Source: Spirochaetia bacterium (GTDB lineage: Bacteria > Spirochaetota > Spirochaetia > SZUA-6 > Bin103). From it: a stretch of DNA of 64,000 nt. The translations under genes were made by a program, and so were the position numbers. The stretch spans positions 619,396-683,395 of the forward strand of contig OZ242313.1 of NCBI GenBank assembly GCA_965208065.1, in the 5' to 3' direction. A model generated the notes under the pieces. The model did no database searches and had not been told where the DNA came from. It was given only the letters and a program-made list of their open reading frames with translations. Below are positions 10,317 to 42,698 of the stretch, piece after piece; positions within the stretch are counted from its first letter, which is position 1; the number at the start of each line of letters is the position of its first letter.

Positions 10317-10401
10317 GCTGCGGTGGTGGAATTGGTAGACACGCTAGCTTGAGGGGCTAGTGGGCGTTTAGCCCGTGAAGGTTCAAGTCCTTTCCGCAGC
10401 A
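10317..10401 (+). tRNA. tRNA-Leu (anticodon GAG), 85 nt with a long variable arm.
   Basis: Acceptor stem GCTGCGG/CCGCAGC (7 bp), D-arm GTGGAATTGGTAGAC, anticodon stem-loop CTAGC-TTGAGGG-GCTAG, long variable arm, T-arm GGTTCAAGTCC. Confidence 0.85.
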
Positions 10402-22633: not shown

Positions 22634-24664
22634 TCAAAACCGGACCACCGAGAGCAGGCCGGTGGTCAGAAACGGCGCATAGGTAATTACCAGCACCACG
22701 ACAAGCAGAACCAGCAGGAACGGCACCACGGTCCGGTAGACGCTCACCAGGTCCTTGTCGAAGCGGTAGGAGGACAGGAACAGGTTGATGCCCACCGGCG
22801 GCGTGAGGTAGCCCAACTCCAGGTTGGCCAGGAAGATGATGCCCAGGTGAACGGGGTGGATGCCGTACGAGACACCGAGCGGGATCAGCAGCGGCCCGAG
22901 CACCACGATGGCGGAGAAGATGTCCATCAGGGCGCCCGCCACCAGCAGGGTGAGGTTGAGCAGGATCAGGAACAGCAGCGGCGAGCTGATCGCGCCGCTC
23001 GCCCACGCCGCCAGGCTGGTGGGCACCTCGGCGTCCACCATGAAGTAGGACAGGCCCTTGGCGAGGGCGAGAATGACCATTATGCCGCCGATGATCGGCG
23101 TGCACTTGGCGAGCACGCGCGGCAGGGAGCGCAGGGGAATGTCGCGGTGCACCAGCGTCTCCACCAGCAGGACGTAGAGGGTGGCTGCCGCCGCCGTTTC
23201 CACCAACGAGGTGACGCCGCCGAAGTAGAGCGCCACCACCACCACCGGCAGAGCCAGTTCCCAGGCCGCGCCGCGCGCCGCCAGCAGGGCCGGACGCAGG
23301 TGGAAGCGGGGCCGGTCGCCGCCGGTGCCGGGTGCGGCGTCGGTGCGGCGCCGGAGCGCCTGGAAGATGCCGAGCGCGGCCAGGGCGAGCACCATCAGCA
23401 CGCCCGGTACGAAGCCGCCCACGAACAGCTGGCGGATGTCGATCTGGGCGATGACGCCGTACATGATGATCGGCAGGGCGGGCGGGAACAGCAGCCCGAT
23501 GCTGCCGGCGGCCGTCAGCAGGCCGATGCTGAACTGTTCGCGGTAGCCGTTGCGCTGCAGCATGTACAGCAGCAGTCCGCCGAGGGCGAGGATGGTGACC
23601 CCGGAGGCGCCGGTGAAGGTGGTGAAGAATGCGCACAGCAGCACCGCCATCACCGCCAGACCGCCGCGGAACCAGCTGAACCAGGCCTGGAACAGGGTGA
23701 TAAGGCGTTCTCCCGCCTTGCTCTCGGAGAGAATGAAGCCCGCTACCGTGAACAGCGGGAGCGCCGGCACCAGCGGCTGCGACAGCATGGCGTAGGCCTC
23801 GTCCGGCACCACCTCCAGGGCACCGCCGGAGCCCAGGAACTGCAGCAGCGTGAAGCCGCTCAGGATCACGAAGATGGGCGTGCCAATAAACGCCGAGGCG
23901 ACCAGCACCAGCACCAGCGGCAGGCGCGCCGCGGCGGCGACGGCGGCCACCGCGTCGACCAGGGCGTAGCTGGGGAAATAGCCGGGCACGGCTACCTGCA
24001 GCGCGTTGACCAGCGGCCCGACGCCGATCAGCAGCCCGGTGGGAATGGCGAGCAGGACCGCCGCGCGCGCCACCGGTTGGCGAAACCCGTGGACCACGAA
24101 ATGCGCGGTCATGCCGGCAAACCCGAGCGGCAGAACCGCGACGGCAAACTGAATCGGCACTCCGCCCACGTCCTGGCTGGGATCGAACGCGATCAGCACC
24201 AGCGACAGGGCGCTGACCGCCAGGGCGGTAGTGACCACCACCGATATCGCGCTGGCGGCCGCTCGTACCCGCGCACCCCACGGGTCCGGCAACTGGTGGA
24301 GGCCGCTGGACAGGGCGAGATGGGACCCCTGGCGGGTGGTCACGACGCCGCCGAGCAGCGCCACCCACAGGGTGAGGTGGCGGACGTACTCGCCGCTGGC
24401 GGCAAGCCCGCCGCCGAACAGCAGGCGCAGCACGGCGGCGGCGGTGGGCAGCGCCGCCAGCAGCACCAGCGCCGTGGTGACGGTGCCGTTTTCCAGGCGC
24501 GCGAGCAGGGTGCGGGGGGCGGCCGGTTCACCGACCGCCGCGTGCGCCGCGAGCGGCGACTGCGGATCTCCCGGCACCGGAGCACCCGGAACCGCCAGGT
24601 TACCCGCGGCCCCGGTGGCGGCGGGCTCTTGCGGCCCCGCGGACTTGTCCCGCCCCTCGGTCAC
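22634..24664 (-). CDS. TRAP transporter fused small/large permease (DctQ-DctM fusion).
   Basis: N-terminal 4-TM DctQ-like region followed by a 12-TM DctM-like region. The gene is adjacent to a DctP gene. Confidence 0.8.
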   Translation of the reverse strand: MTEGRDKSAGPQEPAATGAAGNLAVPGAPVPGDPQSPLAAHAAVGEPAAPRTLLARLENGTVTTALVLLAALPTAAAVLRLLFGGGLAASGEYVRHLTLWVALLGGVVTTRQGSHLALSSGLHQLPDPWGARVRAAASAISVVVTTALAVSALSLVLIAFDPSQDVGGVPIQFAVAVLPLGFAGMTAHFVVHGFRQPVARAAVLLAIPTGLLIGVGPLVNALQVAVPGYFPSYALVDAVAAVAAAARLPLVLVLVASAFIGTPIFVILSGFTLLQFLGSGGALEVVPDEAYAMLSQPLVPALPLFTVAGFILSESKAGERLITLFQAWFSWFRGGLAVMAVLLCAFFTTFTGASGVTILALGGLLLYMLQRNGYREQFSIGLLTAAGSIGLLFPPALPIIMYGVIAQIDIRQLFVGGFVPGVLMVLALAALGIFQALRRRTDAAPGTGGDRPRFHLRPALLAARGAAWELALPVVVVALYFGGVTSLVETAAAATLYVLLVETLVHRDIPLRSLPRVLAKCTPIIGGIMVILALAKGLSYFMVDAEVPTSLAAWASGAISSPLLFLILLNLTLLVAGALMDIFSAIVVLGPLLIPLGVSYGIHPVHLGIIFLANLELGYLTPPVGINLFLSSYRFDKDLVSVYRTVVPFLLVLLVVVLVITYAPFLTTGLLSVVRF

Positions 24665-24794
24665 CCGCGGCCCTCCCGGGCTGCTTCGGTCGCCGACAGC
24701 CGGTAGCGCAACACCCGCTGCACTCGAGCGGCGCTCTCGGCGTGGCGCCGGGTTCCACCGCGGGACACCGGCAGCTCCGTCGTCAGTTCAGTTG

Positions 24795-25841
24795 TCAGTT
24801 GCTGCCCCCGCGGGCGCGGTAGGCGTTGACCTTCTCGATAACCAGATCGTACGCCTCCGGATCGATCTCGTCGCCGATCAGGTCGCCGAAGTAGCGCCCG
24901 ATGATGTCCGTGAACTCCTGCTCCAGCTCGGCGGTCGCCTCGTGCACCTGCAAGCCGTGGGCAACCATGACGTGTACCGCCAGGTCGTCCATCTCGTAGG
25001 CGCCCTCGCTGACTCGCTGCGCGGCGACGGTGGCGGCGCGCATCAGGCGCGGGCGCAGGTCGGCGGGAATGCGCTGCCAGGCGCGCTTGCTGATCATCAC
25101 CGCCCCGAACAGCGGCGTGAAGCGCAAGTCGGTCATGTGCGGCACGATGCCGAACCATTGGAACGATGCCGCCCCCGAGGGGCTGGACGCCACCGCGTCG
25201 ATCATGCCGCTCTGCAACGCGGTGGTAACCTCCGCAACCGGCAGCGCCACCGGGTTGAAGCCGGCCTGCTGCCAGGCGCGCAGCACGGCCGGGCTGGCCG
25301 AACCGACCCATAGCTTATGGCGGCGCAGGTCGTCCGCGGTATGCACCGGCTCGCGCGCAAAGAACTTCACCCAGCCGATCGGCGCCCACATCAGCGGTAC
25401 GAAACCGCGCTCCTCGAGCTGCTCGTTGAAGAACGGCGTCATCTCGTCGAGGATGTTGCGCATCTCCTCGTCGGTGCGCACCAGCATCGGCTGGGCGATG
25501 GCCAGCACGCCCGGGTAAATGCTGTTGAAGCTGATCGCGGTCATCGCGGCGGCCTGCAGTTGGCCGATGCGCATCTTGCGGATCATGTCCGGCTCGTTGC
25601 CGGCAATGCCGCCGGGAAAGATCTTGACCTCGATTTCGCCGTCGGAGATGCGCGCCCAGTCGGCGGCCAGGCCGCGCAGGGCAAGATCCCACGGCGTGTT
25701 GGCGGGAGCCACGCTGCCCAGCTTGATGGTGAGCGCGGTGGCGCTGGCGGTGCAGCACAGCGCCAGCACCAGCGCCAGCAGCATGCGCCGCCGCCACCTG
25801 CCGGTGCGGTGGCGCGGTTGAACCTCGTTATAACTCAACAA
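24795..25841 (-). CDS. TRAP transporter substrate-binding protein (DctP/SiaP family).
   Basis: Signal-peptide-like N-terminus, and the DctP-family fold is implied by the sequence (PGGIAGNEPDMIRKMRIGQLQAA...). The start may instead be at the internal MLLALVLAL. Confidence 0.8.
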   Translation of the reverse strand: MLSYNEVQPRHRTGRWRRRMLLALVLALCCTASATALTIKLGSVAPANTPWDLALRGLAADWARISDGEIEVKIFPGGIAGNEPDMIRKMRIGQLQAAAMTAISFNSIYPGVLAIAQPMLVRTDEEMRNILDEMTPFFNEQLEERGFVPLMWAPIGWVKFFAREPVHTADDLRRHKLWVGSASPAVLRAWQQAGFNPVALPVAEVTTALQSGMIDAVASSPSGAASFQWFGIVPHMTDLRFTPLFGAVMISKRAWQRIPADLRPRLMRAATVAAQRVSEGAYEMDDLAVHVMVAHGLQVHEATAELEQEFTDIIGRYFGDLIGDEIDPEAYDLVIEKVNAYRARGGSN

Positions 25842-26808
25842 ACAGATCCTCCATGTGTTCGAGCAGCCAGACGGCGTACTGCTGATCGAGCGTATTTTGC
25901 AGCCGATACTGCGCCACGTCCAACTCTATGGCCAGCGCATCGTCGAGCAGGCTGCGGAACGCCTCCGCATCCTGCTGGTTGATGGCCACGCCGGCCATCG
26001 CCAGGTAGGGTCCGGTGCGCTTGTCGCCGGAAGCGGCCACGGCGCGTGCGAAGTGCTCGGCGGCGAGTTCCATGCCGCCGCCGAGGGCCGTCGCGGTACC
26101 TGCATAGTAGCGGATCAGGATGTCGTGTGCGGCACCGCCCTGGTAGCCCTCGTCCCAGCCGATTACCGTGTGCAGCATCTGAGCGGCGTACGGTGCGGTG
26201 ATCAGCAGCTCCATGTCGAACGGATCGGTGGACAGGGCGCCCAGGCACGCCGCCGCCGTCCAGTACATGAAGTCGATGCTCGAAGCATCCACCATGGCCA
26301 GCGCCCGGTCCATGGTGTCCGGCGACGCGAACAGAGCGCCGAAGCCCGGATGGCGCAGATCGAGACCGGCGAGCAGGTAGTCGCGCCCGCGCAGGTAGTG
26401 CAGCTTGGCGCGCTGCAGTTCGCTGATGCGCTGGTCGATCTCGGTTACTGCCATCTGCTCCGCCGGGCGCTGCACGAACGCATTGGCGTAGGCCACGAAG
26501 CTGCGCCCGGTGGCCAGATGCAGGCCCGGATCGTCGCGCGCCCGGGTCAGCAGAATCTCGTACAGCTTGAGGGCGAACGGCAGAGCGTCGCCGACCAGGC
26601 GCGGGTCCTGTTCGCTGGCGAACACGTCATCGTCGCCGGTTGCGCTGACCAGGTCGGTCACCGTGCGGGTGGCGAGCCGGTCGAGCGAACAGCCGGCGAG
26701 CATGGCGGCGATGCATCCGAGTACGCACAGCAGCCGGACGGCGCTGCGCCGGCCGGGGCGTCGAGTCATTGCGTGAGCGTGCGAGGCACGTGCTGCAGGT
26801 GCAGTCAT
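25828..26808 (-). CDS. TRAP-associated TatT-like TPR/helical lipoprotein.
   Basis: Lipobox (LAGC) after a signal peptide. All-helical sequence resembling the TRAP-transporter TatT component family. The ATG at 26808 overlaps the tatD stop (ATGA). An alternative start lies at 26769. Confidence 0.5.
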   Translation of the reverse strand: MTAPAARASHAHAMTRRPGRRSAVRLLCVLGCIAAMLAGCSLDRLATRTVTDLVSATGDDDVFASEQDPRLVGDALPFALKLYEILLTRARDDPGLHLATGRSFVAYANAFVQRPAEQMAVTEIDQRISELQRAKLHYLRGRDYLLAGLDLRHPGFGALFASPDTMDRALAMVDASSIDFMYWTAAACLGALSTDPFDMELLITAPYAAQMLHTVIGWDEGYQGGAAHDILIRYYAGTATALGGGMELAAEHFARAVAASGDKRTGPYLAMAGVAINQQDAEAFRSLLDDALAIELDVAQYRLQNTLDQQYAVWLLEHMEDLFVEL

Positions 26809-27611
26809 TGTACTCCTTCCGGTTGCAGGCGCGGGAACAGCCGTGCCGCGTTGCCGGTGGTTTGCAGAGCGATCTGCTCGGTGTCGGTGGCGCGCACCGC
26901 CGCCAGCCGCTCGGCGACGTGGCGCAGCAGGGCGGGCTCGTTGCGGCGCCCGCGCAGCGGCTCGGGGGCCAGGTAGGGAGCGTCGGTCTCCAGCACCAGG
27001 CGGTCGGCGGGCGCCGCCGCGGCGACCGCGCGCACCTCGTCGGCGCGGCGGAAGGTGAGCATGCCGCCGATGCCGAGGTAGAAGCCGGCGGCGAGCGCGA
27101 AGTCGGCGGCGGCGCGGCCGGCGCTGAACGCGTGCAGTACCCCGGGCGGCTGCGGCAGCTCGGCGCGCTGTCCCCAGGCGCGCAGCCGTTCCAGCAGGTT
27201 GCCGGTGGCCTCGCGGTTGTGCAGGATTACCGGCAGGCCGGTTGCCGCGGCCAGGTCGAGCTGGGCGTCCAGCCACCGCTCCTGCAGCTCCGGGGCCGGC
27301 CCGCGGTAGTAGTCGAGGCCGATTTCGCCGATGGCGACCACCGCCGGGTCGCCGGTCAGTGCCCGCAGTTCGGGCATGACCCGGTCCGGGTCGCCCGCCT
27401 TCTCGCACCACAGCGGATGGATGCCCACCGCGACGCCGATGCCGGGGTAGCGCGCGGCCAGGCCGACGGCGGCGCGCGCGCTCGCCAGTCCGGTGGCCGG
27501 GATCAGCACGCCGGTTACGCCGGCCGCCGCGGCGCGCTCCAGCACCTGCTCGCGGTCGTCCGCGAAGCGGTCGTCGTTTAGGTGGCAGTGGGTGTCGACG
27601 AAACCGTTCAC
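26805..27611 (-). CDS. tatD: TatD-family metal-dependent hydrolase (DNase).
   Basis: VDTHCHL...GIHP...GEIGLDY...LETDAPYL motifs. The GTG start at 27611 overlaps the upstream stop (GTGA). The Arg-rich 109-aa ORF extension was rejected. Confidence 0.8.
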   Translation of the reverse strand: MNGFVDTHCHLNDDRFADDREQVLERAAAAGVTGVLIPATGLASARAAVGLAARYPGIGVAVGIHPLWCEKAGDPDRVMPELRALTGDPAVVAIGEIGLDYYRGPAPELQERWLDAQLDLAAATGLPVILHNREATGNLLERLRAWGQRAELPQPPGVLHAFSAGRAAADFALAAGFYLGIGGMLTFRRADEVRAVAAAAPADRLVLETDAPYLAPEPLRGRRNEPALLRHVAERLAAVRATDTEQIALQTTGNAARLFPRLQPEGVQ

Positions 27612-28603
27612 GCCGCCGCCCTCGCTTCGTGCAGCACCGGCTCGGGTACCGCCGGGGTGGCGCCGCGCCGGGTCGCCACGAAGGCGGCGTACCGGTTCGC
27701 CGCCGCCGCGGTGCGCTGCAGGTCGCCGCCGCGCAGCGCGTGGTAGAGGAGCGCGGCGGCGAACGCGTCGCCGGCGCCGACGGTGTCGGCCACCGGGACA
27801 TTGATGCCGGGCTGTTCGGCGATGCACGGCGCAATGGACCGCGTTGCCGCGGGCTGGCCGCCGCCGTCGGCAGGGGTGCCGAGACCGCCGGCACGGGCGC
27901 CGGCCAACAGGCAGCCGCGTGCGCCGCGGGTGAGACATGCCACGCTGAGACCGTAGCGTTCGAGCAGAGCGGCGAGCATGGCGGGCTGGTCGCCGGCGGG
28001 CAGGCCGAGCGCGGCCGCTACCAGCGGCAGCTCCTCGTCGTTGAGTTTCACGGCGGTGGCGGCTTCGAGCGATGTGTCGAGCACTTCGGCGGACCAGAAG
28101 TGCTGGCGCAGGTTGACGTCGAACAGGCGCACGCAGTGCGGCGGGCAGGCGGCGACGAATGCGCCGATCACCGCGGCCGCGTCCACGGAGCGCTGCGCCA
28201 GGGTGCCGAAGGTGACCGCGTCGGTGCGGGCCGCCAGTTCCCGCCAGGCGTGGTCGAGCCGGGGATGGTCGAACGCCACCTGTTCGTGAATGGTGTAGGT
28301 CGGCGCACCGTCGTGCAGGGCGACGTCGACGGTCCCGGTGGGGTGGCCGGCAGCGCGCTGCAGGTAACGCCCGTCCACGCCGAGCTCACGCAGGCGCCCG
28401 GCCAGGTCGTCACCATTGGCGTCGCGGCCGACGCTGCTGGCCAGGACGCCGCGGTCGCCGAGCAGCGAAGCGTGGTAGGCGAGATTCGCCACCGCCCCGC
28501 CAAGTTCGCGGCGTCCGTCGGGAAACACGTCCCACAGCAGTTCACCGATGCCGACGACCACAAACGGGCCTCCAGATGGCGATCGCTTCGCAGCCATCAC
28601 CAT
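27608..28603 (-). CDS. PfkB-family carbohydrate kinase (fructokinase/ribokinase-like).
   Basis: VVVGIGELLWDVF N-terminal motif and the GAGDAF ATP-binding motif near the C-terminus. Confidence 0.75.
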   Translation of the reverse strand: MVMAAKRSPSGGPFVVVGIGELLWDVFPDGRRELGGAVANLAYHASLLGDRGVLASSVGRDANGDDLAGRLRELGVDGRYLQRAAGHPTGTVDVALHDGAPTYTIHEQVAFDHPRLDHAWRELAARTDAVTFGTLAQRSVDAAAVIGAFVAACPPHCVRLFDVNLRQHFWSAEVLDTSLEAATAVKLNDEELPLVAAALGLPAGDQPAMLAALLERYGLSVACLTRGARGCLLAGARAGGLGTPADGGGQPAATRSIAPCIAEQPGINVPVADTVGAGDAFAAALLYHALRGGDLQRTAAAANRYAAFVATRRGATPAVPEPVLHEARAAA

Positions 28604-28641: not shown

Positions 28642-30573
28642 TTAAGAATTGCCAAGGCGAATGCCAAGGCGAACGCCAAGGTCACGGCATCGGCGCTCCC
28701 GCCACGCCGTGACGGCGTCCGCGGGCACCTCCGGCGCGCGCCACAGCGCCCAGTTGAGGCAGGCGGTGAGGTCGGCCTCGTGCTCGACGCCGATGCCGAG
28801 CCGCACCAGCCGGTCGACGCCGATGCGGCGTACCTCGGCCGCGGCGGTGAAATACTCCGACACCGAGCGGTGGTGGTTGATCTTGGTGGCCAGGCCGTCG
28901 AAGCTGAGCGCGTAGCGCGGCACCCCGGTCATCGCGAGCACGTCGCAGAAGTGGCGGGTGGCGTCCTCGTCGGCGTCGCGCAGGCGCAGGCTGACCATCG
29001 ATCCCGGCAGCCGGTAGTGGCGGGCAATCGCGGCGGCGTCGGGATGATCGGGCAGCGACGGGTGCAGCACCTCCGCCACGCGCGGATGGCCGGCCAGGAA
29101 GCGCGCCACCGCGGTCGCCGTCCGGCAGCGCCGCTCGAAGCGCGCGCGCGCGCCGCCCAGGCCGGCCAGGATGACGCGCGCGCGCCGCCAGTCCAGGATG
29201 CCGCCGCGCATCGCCTGCAGATCCATCGCCTCGTTGACCAGGTCGACCTGGTTGCTTGCCAGATAGCCCCACATGTCGCGGTCCTGGCCGCCGAGCGCCT
29301 TGGTGCCGCTGGCCACCACCGCGTCGATGCCGGGCGCCGACAGCAGCGGCTCGCGCAGGCCCCACGGCGTGGCGATGGTGTTGTCCACCACCACCCGCAG
29401 GTTGCCGGCGCCGGCGGCGCGGGCGCGCGCGGCCACCGCCGCCAGGGCGGGCGGGTCAAGCGCCCTGGTGTGCGGATTGGTGTAGGTCTCGGTGAACAGC
29501 ATGGTGGTGTCCGGGCGCAGTGCCCGCTCGACGGCGCCGAGGTCACCGTCGTCGACCAACGTCACTTCGCCGCCCTGGCGCCCGGCGAGGCGCTGCAGGT
29601 AGCTCTTGGTCTTGTTGTACACGCTGCGCGTAACCACGGCATGGCTGCCCGGTGCGAACAGCACGTCGCAGGTCAGCGCACACGCCTGCATGCCGCCGTC
29701 GGTGAGCAGGGCGCCGGCGGCCTGTTCCAGGCGGCGCACCTCGGCGAGCAGCAGGCGGCCGCTCTCGGTGCCGTAGCGGCCGTAGGTCTGCGGCAGCTCG
29801 GACCACGCCTCGCCGGCCAGAAACACCGCCGCCGCCTTGCGCTCCTGCCAGCGCACCATCGGCTCGCTGCCGAACAGGTCGAGCTGCAGGGTCTCGCCGT
29901 CGGGGTGCAGGTAGGGCTGCCCGAGGCGGCGCATGGAGGCGTCGATGGCGTCGTGCAGCGAACGCGTCGCCGCGTTCATGGCCGCGCGCGGCGGCGGCTC
30001 GGCGGGCAGCGCGGCGGCGGCGTCCGGGTCGAGGTAGGCCGGGTCGAGCACCGTTCCCGCACCGATCACGCCGAGCAGCGCCAGTTCGTGCTCCAGCATC
30101 GGGGTCAGCACCCCGGTGCCGGCGGCGCCGCGCAGCTCCTCGGCAGACCAGAAGCGCACCTCGTCGACCTCCTCCGGGTGCGGGCGGAACGGGCCGCCGT
30201 GCTCGATCCGGTAAGAGGTGACGTGCTCGGTCTCCACCGGTGAGCGCCACACGTATTCGTGCACCGGCGCCAAGGCGGCCGCGTCGACGGTAAGGCCCAA
30301 CTCTTCGGCAGTTTCGCGCGCCGCGGCTTCCGGGTAGCTCTCGCCGGCCGCCAGGTGGCCGCCCACCGAGGTATCCCACTTGCCGGGCTGGATCTCCTTG
30401 CTGGCCGAGCGCTTCTGCAGCAGCAGCCGGCCGCGGTCGTCGTACACCAGCACATGCACGGCGCGATGGCGCAGGGCGGGTGCGCCGTGCACGCGGGAAC
30501 GCGGAACCGTGCCGATCACCGTGTTGTCGGCATCGACCAGGTCCAGCAGTTCCGTGTCCGACCGTGAAGACAC
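28642..30573 (-). CDS. Fusion protein: an N-terminal NUDIX hydrolase domain (IDI-1-like fold, no catalytic Cys) and a C-terminal PLP-dependent Cys/Met-metabolism-family enzyme (cystathionine gamma-synthase / beta-lyase-like).
   Basis: Nudix box GGHLAAGESYPEAAARETAEELGL. PLP-family motifs DNTIATP and ASGTKALGGQ (PLP lysine). The start is called at GTG 30573, just after the redoxin stop. Confidence 0.7.
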   Translation of the reverse strand: MSSRSDTELLDLVDADNTVIGTVPRSRVHGAPALRHRAVHVLVYDDRGRLLLQKRSASKEIQPGKWDTSVGGHLAAGESYPEAAARETAEELGLTVDAAALAPVHEYVWRSPVETEHVTSYRIEHGGPFRPHPEEVDEVRFWSAEELRGAAGTGVLTPMLEHELALLGVIGAGTVLDPAYLDPDAAAALPAEPPPRAAMNAATRSLHDAIDASMRRLGQPYLHPDGETLQLDLFGSEPMVRWQERKAAAVFLAGEAWSELPQTYGRYGTESGRLLLAEVRRLEQAAGALLTDGGMQACALTCDVLFAPGSHAVVTRSVYNKTKSYLQRLAGRQGGEVTLVDDGDLGAVERALRPDTTMLFTETYTNPHTRALDPPALAAVAARARAAGAGNLRVVVDNTIATPWGLREPLLSAPGIDAVVASGTKALGGQDRDMWGYLASNQVDLVNEAMDLQAMRGGILDWRRARVILAGLGGARARFERRCRTATAVARFLAGHPRVAEVLHPSLPDHPDAAAIARHYRLPGSMVSLRLRDADEDATRHFCDVLAMTGVPRYALSFDGLATKINHHRSVSEYFTAAAEVRRIGVDRLVRLGIGVEHEADLTACLNWALWRAPEVPADAVTAWRERRCRDLGVRLGIRLGNS

Positions 30574-30575
30574 GG

Positions 30576-31157
30576 TCAGACCAGGTCGCAGGCCTCCGCG
30601 GGCATCCAGTGGGCGTCCTGGTTCTTCCATTTCACATTGCAGCCGATCGGGTTGGTCAGCGGAACGGCCACCTCTTTGCCGGCGAGCACCGCGTCGAGGG
30701 CGTCACGCAACTCGCGGGTGGAGGCGCCGGCGGGGTCGCGCGGGTCGTCGTCCATGCGCCCGGTGTAGCGCAGCTTGCCGTCGCCGTCGAACAGGTAGAA
30801 GTGCGGCGTGCGCAGCGCCCCGTAGGCGAGCGCCACCTCCTGGCTGTCGTCGCGCACGTAGGCGAACTGGAAGCCCCTTTCGGCGGCGCGCTCCTGCATG
30901 TGCTCGAAGGAGTCGGTGGGATGGTCGTCGGTCTCGTTGGAGTTGATCGACACCATCGCCACGCCCTTGTCCTTGTAGTCGGCGTACAGGTCGTTGAAGC
31001 GGTCTTCCGAACCGATCACGAACGGACAGTGGTTGCACGCGAACACGACGATGAGCGCCTCCGCGTCGGCGAAGCTGGCCAGTGAGTAGTCGTTGCCGTC
31101 CACTCCCGGCAGGTTGAAGTCGGGCGCTTTTGCGCCCAGGTCGAGGGTAAATGCCAT
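30576..31157 (-). CDS. Thioredoxin-fold redoxin (AhpC/TSA / thiol-disulfide oxidoreductase family).
   Basis: FACNHCPFV thioredoxin-like CxxC-type motif. The start is called at MAFTLDLGAKAPDF. Confidence 0.65.
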   Translation of the reverse strand: MAFTLDLGAKAPDFNLPGVDGNDYSLASFADAEALIVVFACNHCPFVIGSEDRFNDLYADYKDKGVAMVSINSNETDDHPTDSFEHMQERAAERGFQFAYVRDDSQEVALAYGALRTPHFYLFDGDGKLRYTGRMDDDPRDPAGASTRELRDALDAVLAGKEVAVPLTNPIGCNVKWKNQDAHWMPAEACDLV

Positions 31158-31255: not shown

Positions 31256-32488
31256 ATGAAAATAAGTGCTGTTTCCACTCGACCCTTCCGCATCGACCTG
31301 AACCGTCCCATTGGGGATGCGAATTCGCCTCAGGGGCGGCGTGCTTTTGCGGGGTTGATCGTCTCCGTACACTGCGCCTCTGGGCGCGGCGTCAGTGGAG
31401 GCTCCGAGCACGGCGGCGCCGAAACCACCGGCATATCCATCGCACCGGCCGATGCCGGCGATGCCATTCGCGGCCTGGCGGAACTGCTCGTCGGCGCCGA
31501 CCCGCGCGGCGTACGCGGGCTGTGGCAGCGCATGAACGATGCCCTGTTCAAGGGCGGTGCGGTGGGGGTGGCCGGCGATGCCATGGGCAGTCTGGACGTG
31601 GCGCTGTGGGATCTGAAGGGCAGGCTCGCCGGCGAGCCGTTGTGGCGCCTGCTCGGTGCCGCCGACCCGCGCGTGCGCGCCTACGCCAGCGGCCTGGACC
31701 TGCCGCTCGCCGACGCCGAGCTGGATGCCTACTACCGGCGCATGGCGGCGGCCGGGGTGCGCGCCGGCAAGCTGAAGGTGGGGCTCGATCTGCAGCATGA
31801 CTTGCGCCGGCTGGCGATTGTGCGCGACGCGCTGGCCACGGCGCCGGTGGGATGCGGGGCGCCGGCGCTGATGATCGACGCCAATGAGTATTGGGCGCCG
31901 AAACAGGCGGTGCGCCGGGTGGCCGTGTTCGAGGAGCGCTTCGACCTGACCTGGGTGGAGGAACCGGCGCGGCGCTGGGACTACCGCGGCCTGCGCACCG
32001 TGTCGCGCGCCATCCGCGCCGCGGTGGCGACCGGCGAGAACCTGGACTGTCTGTCGCAGTACCGGCCGCTGGTGGAGCACGGCGCGGTGGACATCGTGCA
32101 GGTGGGCACCAACGCCGGCGGCATTACCGGCGCGCTGCAAGTGGCCGAGCTGGCGTACGCCTTCGACTTGCCGGTGGCGATGATGAACTCGCCGGGCAGC
32201 TTCCTGGCGCACGTGGCGGCGGCGCTGCCCAACCACCTGATGATCGAGGTGCTCGACGCCGGACGCGGGGCGATATTCGACCGCGACCTGGTGTTGCGCG
32301 ACGGGTATCTGCACCTCGGCGAGCGGCCCGGCCTGGGCATGGTGCTCGACGAGGAACGGTTGGCCGCCGCCGAGGCCGCCGCGCGGGAGGCGGCCGCTGG
32401 CGAGGGTGGCCTGGATGCCGGCGCCGTACCCGCGGGCCGCCGCGCCGGCGCCGGCCTGATCGAGCACCCGCCCGAGCGGTGGCCGTGA
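31256..32488 (+). CDS. Enolase-superfamily enzyme, mandelate racemase/muconate-lactonising enzyme (MR/MLE) family; probable acid-sugar dehydratase or epimerase.
   Basis: KVGLDL...MIDANEYW...EEP metal-ligand pattern and the overall MR/MLE architecture. Confidence 0.7.
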   Translation: MKISAVSTRPFRIDLNRPIGDANSPQGRRAFAGLIVSVHCASGRGVSGGSEHGGAETTGISIAPADAGDAIRGLAELLVGADPRGVRGLWQRMNDALFKGGAVGVAGDAMGSLDVALWDLKGRLAGEPLWRLLGAADPRVRAYASGLDLPLADAELDAYYRRMAAAGVRAGKLKVGLDLQHDLRRLAIVRDALATAPVGCGAPALMIDANEYWAPKQAVRRVAVFEERFDLTWVEEPARRWDYRGLRTVSRAIRAAVATGENLDCLSQYRPLVEHGAVDIVQVGTNAGGITGALQVAELAYAFDLPVAMMNSPGSFLAHVAAALPNHLMIEVLDAGRGAIFDRDLVLRDGYLHLGERPGLGMVLDEERLAAAEAAAREAAAGEGGLDAGAVPAGRRAGAGLIEHPPERWP

Positions 32489-32561
32489 ACTGCCCGGGCC
32501 GCCACTCCGGCAGCCCCCCTGCCGAAAGCGCACTGACGATGGCGCGCGGCAACGGCGGGCA

Positions 32562-34190
32562 GTGGCGGTGAGCCAGCCCGGCAGACCCCCTGCCCTGCGC
32601 GCCGGTGAGGTGGGTCGCGCTGGGAGCACTGAAGCAGCCGCCATTGAACAGGGTGCGTTGCCGGAGCCGCGCGCGCGGCGCTCGCCGTGGCCGGGCGCAG
32701 TCGCGGTCGTGGCCGACGATCTCACCGGTGCAATGGACGGCGGCGTGCAGCTTCTGCCGCGAACCGCCGTGGAGGTGCTGATAAGCGCCGGCGGCGTGGT
32801 CCCCTTCGCCGCCATGGCCGGCCGCGGTCAGAGATCGGCGCGCGTGCAGACGCCGCCCGCGGGCGGCGATTCGGGGGTATGCCGGCCAGAGGATGCGCCC
32901 CCGGCGGTAGACACTCCTGCACGCATCGCGCAAGCGGCGGATGCGTCGGTGTTGCCGGTGATCAACACGCAGTCGCGTGGCATGCCGCCGGAGGAGGCGT
33001 CCGCGCGCTTTAGTGCGCTATGCCGGGACGTGTCCGCGGCGGGCCGCACGGTGTGGTTCAAGAAGATCGACTCGACGCTGCGCGGCAACGTCGGCGCCGA
33101 GTTGGCGGCCCTGCACGAGGCGCTGGCGCCGTGCGTGATCGTGTGCACGCCGGCGCTGCCGGAAGAGGGGCGCACCGTGCGGGGGGGCGCGCTGCTGGTG
33201 GCCGGCGAGCCGGTCATGGCAACGCCCTACCGCGACGAGATTCCCACCACGCACGGCGCTGCCGCCAGCTCCGCGGTGATAGACATCGTGCGCCGCCAGT
33301 GGCCGGGGTGCCGCGCCGCCCATCTGCCCGCGCGCCCGAGCCGTAGCGAGATCGCCGCCGCGGCGCACGGACGGGTCGACCTGGTCGTGGCCGATGCCGC
33401 CAGCGACGGCGACCTGCATGCGCTCGCAGCGGCAGCGGAAGGGGCCGTTCGCGGGGGCCGCCGGCTGGTGTGGGCGGGGGCCGCCGGCCTGTTGCGCGCG
33501 CTGACGCTGGCCGGCGCGCCCGGGGTCGCCGCCGCGCCGCGCGTGGAGAGCGGCTATCCCGTTGGTAGCCCGGACCCTGCTCCCCCGGCGCCGCTGGTAC
33601 TGGTCTGTGGATCGCGCCGCAGCCTGTCCCACAGGCAGATGGATTTTGCCGCCGCCGCCGCTCGCCCGCTGCTGGTGCGCGCGAGCGCAGCCTCCGGCGC
33701 CGCGGCAAGCAAACGCTGGCACGTCTCCGGCGGCGCGGAAGATGGTGCACCGGGCCCACTGAGCGCCGTGGATGCAGCCGCGCTGTCCGCCAAGGCGCTG
33801 GCCGCCGGCCGGGATCTCTTTCTGTGCGCACCCTCGCTCGCGGAATCCGCCGCCCGGCCATCCGTCCCCGTGGCGGAGACGGTGGCGGCGGATCTTGCCG
33901 ATCTGGCCGCGCGCGCACTGGCGTCGGCGGGCATGCTCCCGCGCGCGCTGCTGCTGGTGGGCGGCGACACCGCCTACGCCTGCCTGCGGCGGCTGGCCAT
34001 TCACCGCCTCGAGCTGTGCGGCGAAGTGGAGCCCTACGTTCCGTGGGGCCGCGTGCTCGGTGGGGCGTGGGACGGCATGGTGCTGGTCACCAAGGCCGGC
34101 GGCTTCGGCGATCCCCACACCCTGCGCCGCGTATGCGGATTCCGCCCCGTTGCCTCACCGCCGGTGCGCGCAGTACGCTCCACGCCATGA
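32562..34190 (+). CDS. Four-carbon acid-sugar kinase family protein (DUF1537/DUF1357, OtnK-like).
   Basis: N-terminal VADDLTGAMDGG signature (ADDxTGA) and a C-terminal nucleotide-binding region. The real start may be the GTG at about 32709. Confidence 0.7.
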   Translation: MAVSQPGRPPALRAGEVGRAGSTEAAAIEQGALPEPRARRSPWPGAVAVVADDLTGAMDGGVQLLPRTAVEVLISAGGVVPFAAMAGRGQRSARVQTPPAGGDSGVCRPEDAPPAVDTPARIAQAADASVLPVINTQSRGMPPEEASARFSALCRDVSAAGRTVWFKKIDSTLRGNVGAELAALHEALAPCVIVCTPALPEEGRTVRGGALLVAGEPVMATPYRDEIPTTHGAAASSAVIDIVRRQWPGCRAAHLPARPSRSEIAAAAHGRVDLVVADAASDGDLHALAAAAEGAVRGGRRLVWAGAAGLLRALTLAGAPGVAAAPRVESGYPVGSPDPAPPAPLVLVCGSRRSLSHRQMDFAAAAARPLLVRASAASGAAASKRWHVSGGAEDGAPGPLSAVDAAALSAKALAAGRDLFLCAPSLAESAARPSVPVAETVAADLADLAARALASAGMLPRALLLVGGDTAYACLRRLAIHRLELCGEVEPYVPWGRVLGGAWDGMVLVTKAGGFGDPHTLRRVCGFRPVASPPVRAVRSTP

Positions 34191-40302: not shown

Positions 40303-41580
40303 ATGGAGAGGTCCTTCGGGATCGGCGACATCGCCGTTTATATCCCCCATCTACAGATTTCGCTCGATACGCTGATCGCACGGCACCGTGAACGCAACCC
40401 GCAGTGGGCCCGGACCCTGGCGCGGGCGCGGCGGCGCACGGGACAGGAGTCGCTGCGCTTCCCGGAGCCGTGGGAGGATGCCGCCACGATGGCGGCGCAG
40501 GCGGCGGCCGCACTGCTGGAACGGATGAGCGAGGCCGAGATCGGCTCGCTGCGCTACCTGGTGGTGGGTACGGAGTCCGGCGTCGACCAGGCCAAACCGG
40601 TGGCGGCGCACGTGCAGGGCATGTTGCAGCGCGCCGGGTTCGCGCTGTCGGGGGCGCTGTCCACGTTCGACATTCAGCACGCTTGCGCCGGCGGGGCGAT
40701 TGGTCTGGCGAGCGTGGGGGCGATGCTGCAGGTGAGCCGCGGCGAGGCCGGGCGCGGGCTGATAATCTGCACCGACGAGGCGCGCTACGCTGCGGGCAGC
40801 AGCGCCGAGATTACCCAGGGCGCGGCTGCGGTGGCGCTGCTGGTGGAGCCGGAGCCGCGCCTGCTGGAGATCGACTTCGCGGCGATCGGTTATGCGTCGC
40901 GCGACGTGGACGACTTCTTCCGCCCGCACGGCTCGGTGGCGGCGCGCGTCAGGGGGCGGTTCTCCATCGATTGCTACCAGCGTGCGGTGGAGGAGGCGCT
41001 GCTCGACCTGGGTGCCCGCACCGGGCGCAGCATGGCGGCGCTGCTGGAGGAGGCCGACCTGTTCGCACTGCACGTGCCGTTCCGCTCGCTGCCGGAGGAG
41101 TCGATGGCGGGCCTGGTGCAGCGCCACCTGGACCTTGATGCGGCCGCGGCGGCGCGGTTTCTGGCCGGGCGGCAATTCGCGGACGGTACCGCCCCCGCCG
41201 CGGTGGTGGGCAACGTGTACTCGGGGGCGCTGTTTCTGAGCGCGGCGGCGCTGCTGGCGGCGCGCCACCGCGAGTGCCGGTCGGCGCTGGCCGGCCAGCG
41301 CGCGGTGCTGGTGGCGTACGGCTCCGGCAACACCGCGCTGGCGTTCTCGGCGCGGGTCGGCGGCAAGGCCGGCGCGGTGCTGGAACGCTGGTCGTTCGAT
41401 GCCCTGATCGACCAGGGGGTGGAGGCGCCGCTGACCGCGTACGATGCCTGGATTGCCGACTATCCTGGCCGGCGCGGCGCCGAACCGGCCCCGGGGCAGG
41501 TTCCGGTGGGCCGCTTCTACCTGCACGGGATTCGCGACGACGGCTATCGCACCTACCGGCACGCAGGATCCGCCGGGTGA
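40303..41580 (+). CDS. mvaS: Hydroxymethylglutaryl-CoA synthase.
   Basis: VVGTESGVDQAKPVAAHV, active-site FDIQHACAGGAIGL, EITQGAAAVALLVEPEPRLL, DVDDFFRP, FALHVPF. These are collinear with bacterial HMGS. Confidence 0.85.
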   Translation: MERSFGIGDIAVYIPHLQISLDTLIARHRERNPQWARTLARARRRTGQESLRFPEPWEDAATMAAQAAAALLERMSEAEIGSLRYLVVGTESGVDQAKPVAAHVQGMLQRAGFALSGALSTFDIQHACAGGAIGLASVGAMLQVSRGEAGRGLIICTDEARYAAGSSAEITQGAAAVALLVEPEPRLLEIDFAAIGYASRDVDDFFRPHGSVAARVRGRFSIDCYQRAVEEALLDLGARTGRSMAALLEEADLFALHVPFRSLPEESMAGLVQRHLDLDAAAAARFLAGRQFADGTAPAAVVGNVYSGALFLSAAALLAARHRECRSALAGQRAVLVAYGSGNTALAFSARVGGKAGAVLERWSFDALIDQGVEAPLTAYDAWIADYPGRRGAEPAPGQVPVGRFYLHGIRDDGYRTYRHAGSAG

Positions 41581-42698
41581 GCTGGAACGAGCCGGCGGCG
41601 GCTGCGGCCGAAATCAGTACCCGCAAGGAGCACCATCTCGACATCTGCCTCGATGACGAGCGCTATCCCGACCCGGCGGCCGGCGGCACCAGCCTCGACC
41701 AGGTGCGGCTGGTGCACCGCGCGCTGCCGGAACTCGACTACAACGCCATCGACACCGCGCAGCCGTTCCTGCGCGCGCGGCTGCGGCTGCCGCTGCTGAT
41801 TTCCTGCATGACCGGCGGCTCGGGGCGCGGGCGCAGCGCCAACCGCGCACTGGCGGAGGCGGCGCAGCGCGCCGGCGTCGCCGTCGGGGTGGGGTCGATC
41901 CGCCCGCTGCTGCGCGATCCCGACACCTTTGCCGACTTCCACGTCAAGCCGCACGCGCCCGACGTGCCGGTGCTCGCCAACCTGGGCGCGGTGCAGCTCC
42001 GCGACCTCGGCGCCGCCGCGCTGCGGCCGCTGCTGGAGCGGCTGGAGGTACAGGGGCTGGTAATCCACCTGAACGCCGGCCAGGAGCTGTTTCAGCCCGG
42101 CGGCGACCGCGATTTCCGCGGCCTGCTGGAGGCGATTGCCGGCGCCGTGGCGGGCTGCGGGGTGCCGGTGCTGGTCAAGGAGACCGGATTCGGCATCGGC
42201 CCGGCGGAGATCCGGCGGCTGCTCGGCTACGGGGTGCGCTACGTGGACGTGGCCGGCTCGGGCGGCACCAACTGGATCGCGGTGGAGGGGGAGCGGCTGG
42301 CCGCGCCGGAGCGGCAGAGCGCGCGTGCGTTCGCTGACTGGGGGTTGCCGACCGGGGTGCTGCTGGCGGCGCTCGGCGGAGCCGAGGCGGGCCGCGTGAT
42401 CGCTTCCGGCGGCTTGCGCAACGGCGTGCACCTGGCCAAGGCGCTGGCCCTGGGCGCCGGGCTCGGCGCCATGGCGTTGCCGTTCATCCGCGCCGTGATG
42501 GCTGGCGGCAGCGAGGGCGCGCTGGCCCTGATCGGGCGTACGGAACATGAGCTGCGCACCGCCATGACGCTGTGCGGCGCCCCGACGCTGGCCGCCCTGC
42601 GCGGGGCGCCGGTGATGCAGTCGGCTTCTTTCCGCCACCAGGTCACCGAACTGCGCCGGGCCGCCCTGCCGAAGTCGGCCTCCGCGGCCGAGGAGTAA
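41577..42698 (+). CDS. fni: Isopentenyl-diphosphate delta-isomerase type 2 (FMN-dependent).
   Basis: N-terminal TRKEHHLDIC (RKxxHL), TIM-barrel FMN-binding motifs (VKETGFGI, ASGGLRNG). The GTG start overlaps the mvaS stop (GTGA). Confidence 0.85.
   Translation: MSWNEPAAAAAEISTRKEHHLDICLDDERYPDPAAGGTSLDQVRLVHRALPELDYNAIDTAQPFLRARLRLPLLISCMTGGSGRGRSANRALAEAAQRAGVAVGVGSIRPLLRDPDTFADFHVKPHAPDVPVLANLGAVQLRDLGAAALRPLLERLEVQGLVIHLNAGQELFQPGGDRDFRGLLEAIAGAVAGCGVPVLVKETGFGIGPAEIRRLLGYGVRYVDVAGSGGTNWIAVEGERLAAPERQSARAFADWGLPTGVLLAALGGAEAGRVIASGGLRNGVHLAKALALGAGLGAMALPFIRAVMAGGSEGALALIGRTEHELRTAMTLCGAPTLAALRGAPVMQSASFRHQVTELRRAALPKSASAAEE

Follow-up and report, generated by a model that had tools for sequence, protein, structure and literature searches.

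We describe a gene in which a Nudix domain and a pyridoxal 5'-phosphate (PLP)-dependent enzyme of the Cys/Met-metabolism family are joined in a single reading frame. It lies in a stretch of 64,000 nucleotides (nt) from a Spirochaetia bacterium (contig OZ242313.1 of assembly GCA_965208065.1, positions 619,396 to 683,395), which as a whole is referred to below as the window. With moderate confidence, we read the product as a two-enzyme polypeptide whose halves are chemically independent of each other, the PLP half acting in the methionine branch. The initial annotation of this DNA had reported one open reading frame (ORF) of 643 amino acids (aa) that carries both a Nudix box and the PLP-lysine motif SGTKALGG (residues 422-429), and this ORF is indeed present where it was placed, with the strand corrected to minus (Table 1). 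The longest ORF at the locus runs over 28642..30630 on the minus strand and would encode 662 aa from an ATG, with its stop codon at 28642-28644; the GTG at 30573, which gives 643 aa, sits 2 nt past the TGA (30578-30576) of an upstream redoxin gene, and the closest homolog, P0001 (98% identity), is likewise 643 aa long. Both domains are recognized above their Pfam cut-offs, namely NUDIX at residues 35-148 (E=6e-22, 78.5 bits against a cut-off of 21.1) and Cys_Met_Meta_PP (PF01053) at residues 262-610 (E=5e-59, 200 bits against 27). The window has a GC content of 69%, and the GC content at third codon positions (GC3) of the whole fusion ORF is 0.90, in the range of the real genes of the window.

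The fusion recurs well beyond this one assembly and is old. Searching 5.8 billion proteins, clustered at the 90% level, returned about 50 clusters that combine both Pfam domains, with identities of 73-98%, as well as P0054 with 53% identity; the few fused homologs that carry a name come from metagenome-assembled genomes (MAGs) of Spirochaetaceae, where NCBI labels them merely as "PLP-dependent transferase". When each GTDB species was represented by a single genome and scanned, 246 genomes, every one of them a MAG, proved to contain a relative of the PLP half, and among the best 80 loci, which were kept, homology began from residue 1-8 in 8, all of them "Spirochaetia". In an exhaustive HMMER search of 1.84 billion representatives at 50% identity, a single representative covered both halves. 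Only a single clade of uncultured Spirochaetia has the fusion, and the suggestion in the initial annotation of a frameshift-free fusion specific to this lineage is borne out. The two outcomes that it had named as refuting its claim, an artificial fusion made by a sequencing error and an architecture that is common and annotated, are contradicted by the recurrence across independent assemblies and by the restriction to one clade under a generic name. Literature searches on a fusion of Nudix with cystathionine gamma-synthase (CGS), on the function of YfcD and on MetX-Hom fusions returned nothing relevant; the fusion architecture and the PLP clade are undescribed in the literature searched, which likewise held no characterised enzyme of this architecture, in agreement with the initial annotation, and the sequences are public under generic names.

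A missed stop codon or frameshift joining two separate genes has a practically negligible probability: although the relative L005 (5399-7392) has the Nudix and PLP halves as two ORFs with a 4-nt overlap, the ORF is unbroken in some 50 independent clusters and in 8 species genomes, across different studies and different assemblers, the halves share one frame and a uniform GC3, and the split in L005 is itself a 2-nt indel within the Gly/Ala linker relative to its fused relatives. This indel lies near a G5 run, and homologous linker residues carry on in the PLP frame; judged from the sequence, the split would be derived from the fused form, possibly as a real recent fission, or would be a long-read homopolymer error, and it does not appear to be ancestral. 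An assembly artefact is thus ruled out by the recurrence and by the analysis of this split. The initial annotation had flagged the junction at about 29950-30050 for such an error; the linker was placed at roughly 30037-30084 (minus strand), and the linker contains neither a stop nor a frame change. Within the fused clade, pairwise ratios of nonsynonymous to synonymous substitution rates (dN/dS) ranged over about 0.14-0.37 in the Nudix module, apart from one pair at 0.52, over 0.16-0.28 in the PLP core and over 0.25-0.94 in the linker, several linker pairs reaching 0.7-0.94. These values indicate that both modules are maintained by purifying selection, with a drifting linker between them.

The C-terminal 465 residues constitute a complete copy of an uncharacterised, highly conserved clade of the Cys/Met gamma family, with members of ~460 aa. 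Stand-alone homologs of about 440-490 aa, from Planctomycetota, Myxococcota, Acidobacteriota, Acidimicrobiia and other Spirochaetia, match residues ~179-634 of the fusion protein at 55-67% identity, and the alignment shows that the Nudix module is joined exactly at YLDP, the native N-terminus of the stand-alone PLP proteins. Among the 50%-identity representatives searched with HMMER, full-length family members scored 394-592 bits, and the next-best full-length matches scored at most 167 bits, at 26-37% identity. The gamma-family catalytic set is present, comprising a Y-x-R phosphate clamp, GM, a stacking Tyr, the Asp of DNT, the Lys of S-x-T-K and a C-terminal Arg; across 32 homologs Y264/R266, G294-M295, Y319, D397 and G423-T424-K425 are invariant and R591 is nearly so. 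Lys425 aligns with the SATK lysine of solved CGS and O-succinylhomoserine sulfhydrylase (OSHS) structures, and the motifs match those of 9iqh and 1i41. The family is also marked by signatures of its own: a conserved N-terminal extension of ~80 residues (PYLHP.GETLQLDLLGS..M..WQERK), the motifs YNKTK and SGTKAL.GQDRDLWGY, and the segments MDLQAMRGGILDWRRA and RYALSFDGLATKLNHHRSVSEYFT.

When the AlphaFold2 (AF2) model was compared by Foldseek with methionine gamma-lyase (MGL), CGS and OSHS, the matches had E about 1e-27 and template modelling (TM) scores of 0.80-0.83 normalised to the targets, at 24-33% identity. None of the NCBIfam equivalog models for CGS/MetB, MetY, MetZ, MGL, cystathionine gamma-lyase (CGL) and cystathionine beta-lyase was passed; the best was the CGL model with 156 bits against 440, the others reaching 100-150 bits against cut-offs of 366-730. 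In the monomer model, the worst-modelled segments, with a predicted local distance difference test (pLDDT) score of 30-48, are residues 221-267 (29773-29913) and 553-575 (28849-28917, the poor modelling being noted for 554-570). No other parts of the PLP module are as specific to the family as these two segments, both of them nearly invariant; they may be ordered only in a tetramer or other oligomer, or upon substrate binding. An NAD/S-adenosylmethionine (SAM)-annulating enzyme of the SbzP type was considered, since a Nudix domain might cleave a dinucleotide product, and was set aside, as the nearest relatives in the PDB sequence search were only canonical CGS, MGL, OSHS and CGL, and the context is that of primary metabolism.

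For the pathway of the PLP half, we rely on the genomic context of the family outside the fused clade, where a partner gene was found by unbiased clustering of neighbouring ORFs and a follow-up census. In Acidobacteriota, Myxococcota and Acidimicrobiia, 28 MAG loci (e.g., L084:5797-8145, L066:5632-7986 and L058:5659-8010) have a gene that we call MetX-Hom immediately upstream of the PLP gene, in the same orientation and separated from it by about 18 nt. The MetX-Hom product of ~782 aa consists of a divergent MetX-type homoserine O-acyltransferase domain and a homoserine dehydrogenase, the latter passing its NCBIfam model (NF004976, 334-356 bits against a cut-off of 205) and the former PRK08775-like at 184-188 bits against a cut-off of 296, which is not passed; no description of such a bifunctional protein was found in the literature searched. 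Since the outer flanking genes vary among loci, MetX-Hom and the PLP protein appear to act as a self-contained two-gene unit. P0119 (782 aa) is a direct fusion of MetX and PLP domains with the same divergent MetX type, as possibly is L044:103-1740; with P0119, the PLP protein has been fused at its N-terminus twice, independently. In L044 a genuine MetY (TIGR01326, 642 bits against 495) adjoins the family member; in L006 the PLP gene stands beside sulfite reductase, PAPS reductase and siroheme genes; and in L004 it lies downstream of gcvT/H/P, with clusters that include L004 members recurring upstream in six other Spirochaetia loci. Because of the MetX-Hom unit, the MetX::PLP fusion and the contexts of L044, L006 and L004, the family belongs most likely to the branch leading from homoserine to homocysteine and methionine, with O-acyl-homoserine as the likely substrate.

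Two further arrangements were observed around PLP genes of this family. In L050, L052, L058, L063, L064, L068 and L075, a class-I SAM-dependent methyltransferase of ~220 aa follows the MetX-Hom and PLP genes on the same strand, overlapping the PLP gene in L058 (9405-10067); this neighbour might point to a methylated product or to methanethiol-type chemistry. In nine Planctomycetota loci (L003, L019, L023, L024, L027, L030, L032, L033 and L036), a conserved ORF with a median length of ~163 aa and no Pfam match lies 3' of the PLP gene on the same strand (e.g., L027:9292-9993); genes for an amidohydrolase and a sigma-70 factor are close by in the opposite orientation, and MetX-Hom and redoxin are both absent there.

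The N-terminal half is a complete Nudix module. Its Nudix box has the spacing G72-x5-E78-x7-R86-E87-T-A-E90-E91-L-G93-L94, which fits the consensus G-x5-E-x7-R-E-U-x-E-E-x-G-U and is kept across 51 fused homologs, and residues 4-170 are modelled with pLDDT >90 as a mixed sheet with helices, consistent with the alpha/beta/alpha Nudix fold. Searching the PDB by sequence with this half returned Escherichia coli YfcD (2fkb, 2e-17), DR_0079 (6e-13) and then isopentenyl-diphosphate isomerase (IDI; 1hx3). We took a residue census over 51 fused and 120 stand-alone members of this large IDI-like family, which includes P0121-P0240 and P0265-P0384. The equivalents of the IDI metal ligands H25, H32, H69 and E116 occur in 171/171 members and that of E114 in 170/171, all five being conserved in the window protein; the equivalent of IDI E87 is essentially invariant, and the REx2EE Nudix box is retained. 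At the equivalent of the catalytic C67 of E. coli IDI, all 171 members have Gly, which extends to the whole family what the initial annotation had noted for this one protein, and the equivalent of Tyr104 is mostly Trp. The NCBIfam models for IDI were not passed, with 106.1 bits against 127 for NF002995, the best NCBIfam match, and 63.7 against 105.8 for TIGR02150, and neither was that for YfcD (NF011922, 82.6 bits against 152).

A true type-1 IDI (IDI-1) was accordingly rejected, in view of the Gly at Cys67 throughout, the scores below cut-off and a type-2 IDI in the window. The latter is encoded at 40303-42698 on the plus strand, where an HMG-CoA synthase gene is followed by a type-2, FMN-dependent isopentenyl-diphosphate isomerase gene (TIGR02151, 323 bits against 281); the two genes together indicate that this high-GC spirochaete lineage has a mevalonate pathway. 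In L002 both are likewise found close to the fusion operon, and in L005 HMG-CoA synthase is. We infer that the Nudix module would be of the hydrolase type on an IDI scaffold, that is, a metal-dependent pyrophosphohydrolase rather than an isomerase. Its substrates are most likely nucleoside di-, tri- or polyphosphates, and its role would be one of house-cleaning, a role that fits because of the promiscuous fusions of the family, including those with MazG and Ppx/GppA partners. Indeed, members of this Nudix family are fused elsewhere to an IspA-like membrane domain (recurrently, in proteins of ~355-365 aa), an Rce1-like protease and Peptidase_S9, and occur as Nudix+Ppx/GppA+HD, MazG+Nudix and Nudix+ABC permease proteins and as tandem double Nudix proteins. 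The stand-alone relatives have unrelated genes as neighbours, and no conserved context was found in these neighbourhoods; the closest of them come from Planctomycetota, Acidobacteria and Polyangia, the phyla that hold the PLP family. The JGI automatic label "isopentenyl-diphosphate isomerase", which many family members carry, is probably wrong.

Within the fused clade, the genes around the fusion keep a conserved order (Table 1). In all 23 Spirochaetia-type loci, whether the PLP gene is fused, split or stand-alone, a redoxin gene lies directly upstream of it, and in the window this gene is probably translationally coupled to the fusion gene. The redoxin is cytoplasmic and has a CxxC (CNHC) thiol-disulfide motif, and it is closer to ResA/TlpA than to a peroxidase. 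As a universal partner of the PLP family the redoxin was rejected, since it occurs in Spirochaetia loci only and in no other phylum. The gene order in all fused-clade loci and in the window is redoxin, fusion, (PfkB) and TatD: a gene for a TatD-family hydrolase is kept 3' of the fusion in every fused-clade locus (L001, L002, L005 and L007-L014, by tblastn), and the PfkB-family kinase gene is present in most of them and absent from L001 and L011.

Table 1. Features of the fusion gene and its operon, in window coordinates.
Feature	Position	Strand	Basis and remarks
Complete fusion gene	28642..30573	minus	643 aa, GTG start; both Pfam domains in one frame
Nudix module, IDI-like/YfcD-like	30064..30564 (residues 4-170)	minus	Pfam, PDB matches, AF2 pLDDT >90
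Nudix box GGHLAAGESYPEAAARETAEELGL	30292..30363 (residues 71-94)	minus	Sequence and 171-member residue census
VGGH, which contains the Gly replacing IDI Cys67	30355-30366	minus	Census of 171 family members
Gly/Ala-rich interdomain linker	30037..30084 (about residues 164-179)	minus	Alignment; length varies among homologs
Family-specific N-terminal extension of PLP module, YLDP...PYLHPDGETLQLDLFGS..WQERK	29788..30036 (residues 180-262)	minus	Many invariant columns
PLP module	28645..30039 (residues 179-643)	minus	Pfam, stand-alone homologs, Foldseek
Lys425 codon, predicted PLP Schiff-base lysine in SGTK	29299-29301	minus	Invariant; aligns with solved CGS/OSHS
AhpC/TSA-redoxin gene, CNHC motif	30576..31157	minus	Pfam Redoxin/AhpC-TSA; upstream of fusion gene
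PfkB-family sugar kinase	27608..28603	minus	Pfam PfkB; downstream of fusion gene; no NCBIfam equivalog passed
TatD-family hydrolase	26805..27611	minus	Pfam TatD_DNase 6e-71

Two neighbouring groups of genes in the window lie outside this unit. Downstream of TatD and co-directional with it, a tripartite ATP-independent periplasmic (TRAP) transporter is encoded at 22634-26700 (minus strand) by a TAtT (T-component) gene, DctP and a fused DctQM; the TAtT gene is found downstream of TatD in 9/11 fused-clade loci. Divergent from the redoxin gene, at 31256-34190 (plus strand), are genes for an MR_MLE enolase-superfamily dehydratase and an SBD_N/NBD_C four-carbon acid-sugar kinase, which suggest a sugar-acid catabolism unrelated to the fusion.

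Because redoxin precedes fused and unfused PLP genes alike at every Spirochaetia-type locus, we take the redoxin-PLP pair to be the ancestral Spirochaetia unit. In one sub-lineage, a Nudix gene would have been inserted between the two genes and would then have lost its stop codon, yielding an in-frame fusion with the PLP gene that may have been kept for being cost-free or for aiding co-expression. In the proposed chemistry, the PLP module would bind an O-acyl-L-homoserine as an external aldimine on Lys425. Once the acyl group had been eliminated, a sulfur nucleophile, which could be sulfide, cysteine or perhaps methanethiol, would be added to give homocysteine, cystathionine or methionine. The Nudix module, for its part, would hydrolyse a diphosphate bond by means of the IDI-type metal site and the glutamates of the Nudix box.

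Several observations weigh against a polypeptide of two independent enzymes with a role in the methionine branch. A functional coupling that escapes us could explain why the fusion persists down to 53% identity, and the company of redoxin, Nudix and TatD could mark a stress-related unit. MetX-Hom is not adjacent to the PLP gene within the fused clade, and its MetX part scores below cut-off, so that the acyl donor, and even homoserine as the substrate, are inferred; likewise, no NCBIfam equivalog comes near its cut-off for the PLP half, whose reaction is therefore read solely from gene context. The MetY gene beside the family member in L044 suggests that the family may have a role different from that of MetY. 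Lastly, searches of the window and of 14 loci at the Rfam gathering thresholds returned only tRNAs and no SAM riboswitch, T-box or other cis-regulatory RNA. In the window, the sole Rfam match at these thresholds is a tRNA gene at 10317-10401 on the plus strand (RF00005, 53 bits).

The constant order of redoxin, Nudix-PLP and TatD genes in every fused-clade locus, together with the pairing of redoxin and PLP genes at all Spirochaetia loci, could instead describe an oxidative-stress or H2S-defence operon, in which a peroxiredoxin-like redoxin, a Nudix module sanitising oxidised nucleotides, a PLP enzyme of the CGL or homocysteine-desulfhydrase type making H2S or persulfide and a TatD repair exonuclease act side by side and the fusion ensures co-expression. 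TatD and Nudix enzymes take part in oxidative damage control, CGL-derived H2S is protective in bacteria, and the best NCBIfam match of the PLP half is the CGL model, though far below its cut-off. We nevertheless consider this unlikely: outside Spirochaetia the PLP family is coupled to the biosynthetic MetX-Hom and not to redox or repair genes, Spirochaetia loci with a stand-alone PLP gene have neither TatD nor Nudix, and the redoxin, with its CNHC motif of the thiol-disulfide type, is more like ResA/TlpA than a peroxidase.

We also give a rather small chance to the PLP family being a new type of homocysteine or methionine synthase with a non-canonical sulfur donor, to which the Nudix module would be functionally coupled in the fused clade. 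Behind this reading stand the traits of the family, which is rare and patchy, holds 55-67% identity across five phyla, and has an N-terminal extension and an active-site loop of its own. Methanethiol, a persulfide or a species derived from thiosulfate are examples of such a donor, which the CxxC redoxin encoded ahead of every Spirochaetia PLP gene might deliver or reduce; the Nudix module might, for instance, remove an inhibitory nucleotide by-product or sense an alarmone.

Gene fusions often mark functional links, and the initial annotation had proposed that the Nudix half cleaves a nucleotide-linked metabolite to feed the PLP half. In such channelling, the Nudix domain would act as a hydrolase on a sulfur or amino-acid compound linked to a nucleoside diphosphate, and the PLP module would take the product as its substrate; the retention of the fusion to 53% identity with both active sites intact, and the occurrence of the closest stand-alone Nudix relatives in phyla that hold the PLP family, are consistent with it. 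This proposal is not supported, and we find it quite improbable. In 69 non-fused loci, with flanks fetched up to 8 kb on each side, no Nudix gene was found near the PLP gene; the stand-alone Nudix genes have unrelated neighbours, the Nudix family has at least six unrelated fusion partners, and the PLP family already has a substrate supplier in MetX-Hom. Direct coupling of the halves is disfavoured because of this absence of Nudix genes, the many Nudix partners, the nearly neutral evolution of the linker and the tolerance of the gene to being split.

Very unlikely, in our estimation, is a regulatory model, in which the Nudix domain would serve as a sensor of nucleotides such as (p)ppGpp or NTP that modulates the PLP enzyme, by analogy with the N-terminal regions of plant CGS. 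The Nudix fusions to MazG and to Ppx/GppA+HD suggest an affinity for nucleoside polyphosphates or alarmones, and in the tetramer expected for the gamma family four N-terminal Nudix domains would be peripheral. The catalytic Nudix-box glutamates and the metal ligands are all conserved, however, which points to catalysis over mere binding, and the flexible, drifting linker speaks against a tight allosteric coupling.

Both domains belong to well-known superfamilies, and their fusion does not amount to a new kind of system. It points, however, to two sizeable uncharacterised families, the MetX-Hom-linked PLP clade and the Cys-less IDI-like Nudix family. Of more interest than the fusion itself is the underlying PLP family, which occurs in at least 246 uncultured species. 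Its link to a MetX-Hom supplier of its own suggests that Acidobacteriota, Myxococcota, Planctomycetota and Spirochaetia reach homocysteine or methionine by an alternative route or an additional one. Re-annotation of the Nudix family matters for the reconstruction of isoprenoid pathways from metagenomes. If the two halves were truly coupled, nucleotide house-cleaning or alarmone turnover would be linked to sulfur amino-acid synthesis, and if the PLP family were a new type of synthase, the fusion would point the way to a new branch in the metabolism of sulfur-containing amino acids.

Compared with known enzymes, the PLP module has the fold of CGS, OSHS, O-acetylhomoserine sulfhydrylase and MGL (PF01053; PDB 9iqh, 1qgn, 3qhx and 2rfv; TM 0.80-0.83), and it has in common with them the core residues, including the C-terminal Arg in vRLgiGvE; the stand-alone family, though not the fused clade, also has a pathway context of MetX, Hom and MetY. 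It differs in its low identity to them (24-33%), in passing no equivalog, in its N-terminal extension of ~80 residues and in the Nudix fusion, and the canonical NPT, YGGT and SLGGxESL...TH loop are replaced in the family by TES, YNKTK and RYALSFDGLATKxNHHxSVSEYF, respectively. The Nudix module belongs to the same Nudix-fold subfamily as IDI-1 (E. coli Idi, 1hx3/1nfs), with the metal ligands and E87 in common, whereas it has Gly at Cys67, mostly Trp at Tyr104 and the full REx2EE box that IDI lost. The closest solved structures are YfcD (2fkb) and Deinococcus DR_0079 (1q27/2o5f), the latter a hydrolase that prefers CDP and CTP; both have the IDI-like N-terminal beta-hairpin and a complete Nudix box, but lack the His equivalent to IDI H69, with GGV and GGA in place of the GGH of the fusion protein. 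The nearest counterparts of the whole protein are P0119 and the MetX-Hom/PLP units of Acidobacteriota and Myxococcota, which contain the same PLP family at 55-60% identity in a fusion or an operon; P0119 shows that the PLP protein tolerates N-terminal fusions. While the Nudix partner has no evident pathway relation to the PLP module, the partner in P0119 and the MetX-Hom units makes its presumed substrate, a classical Rosetta-stone link.

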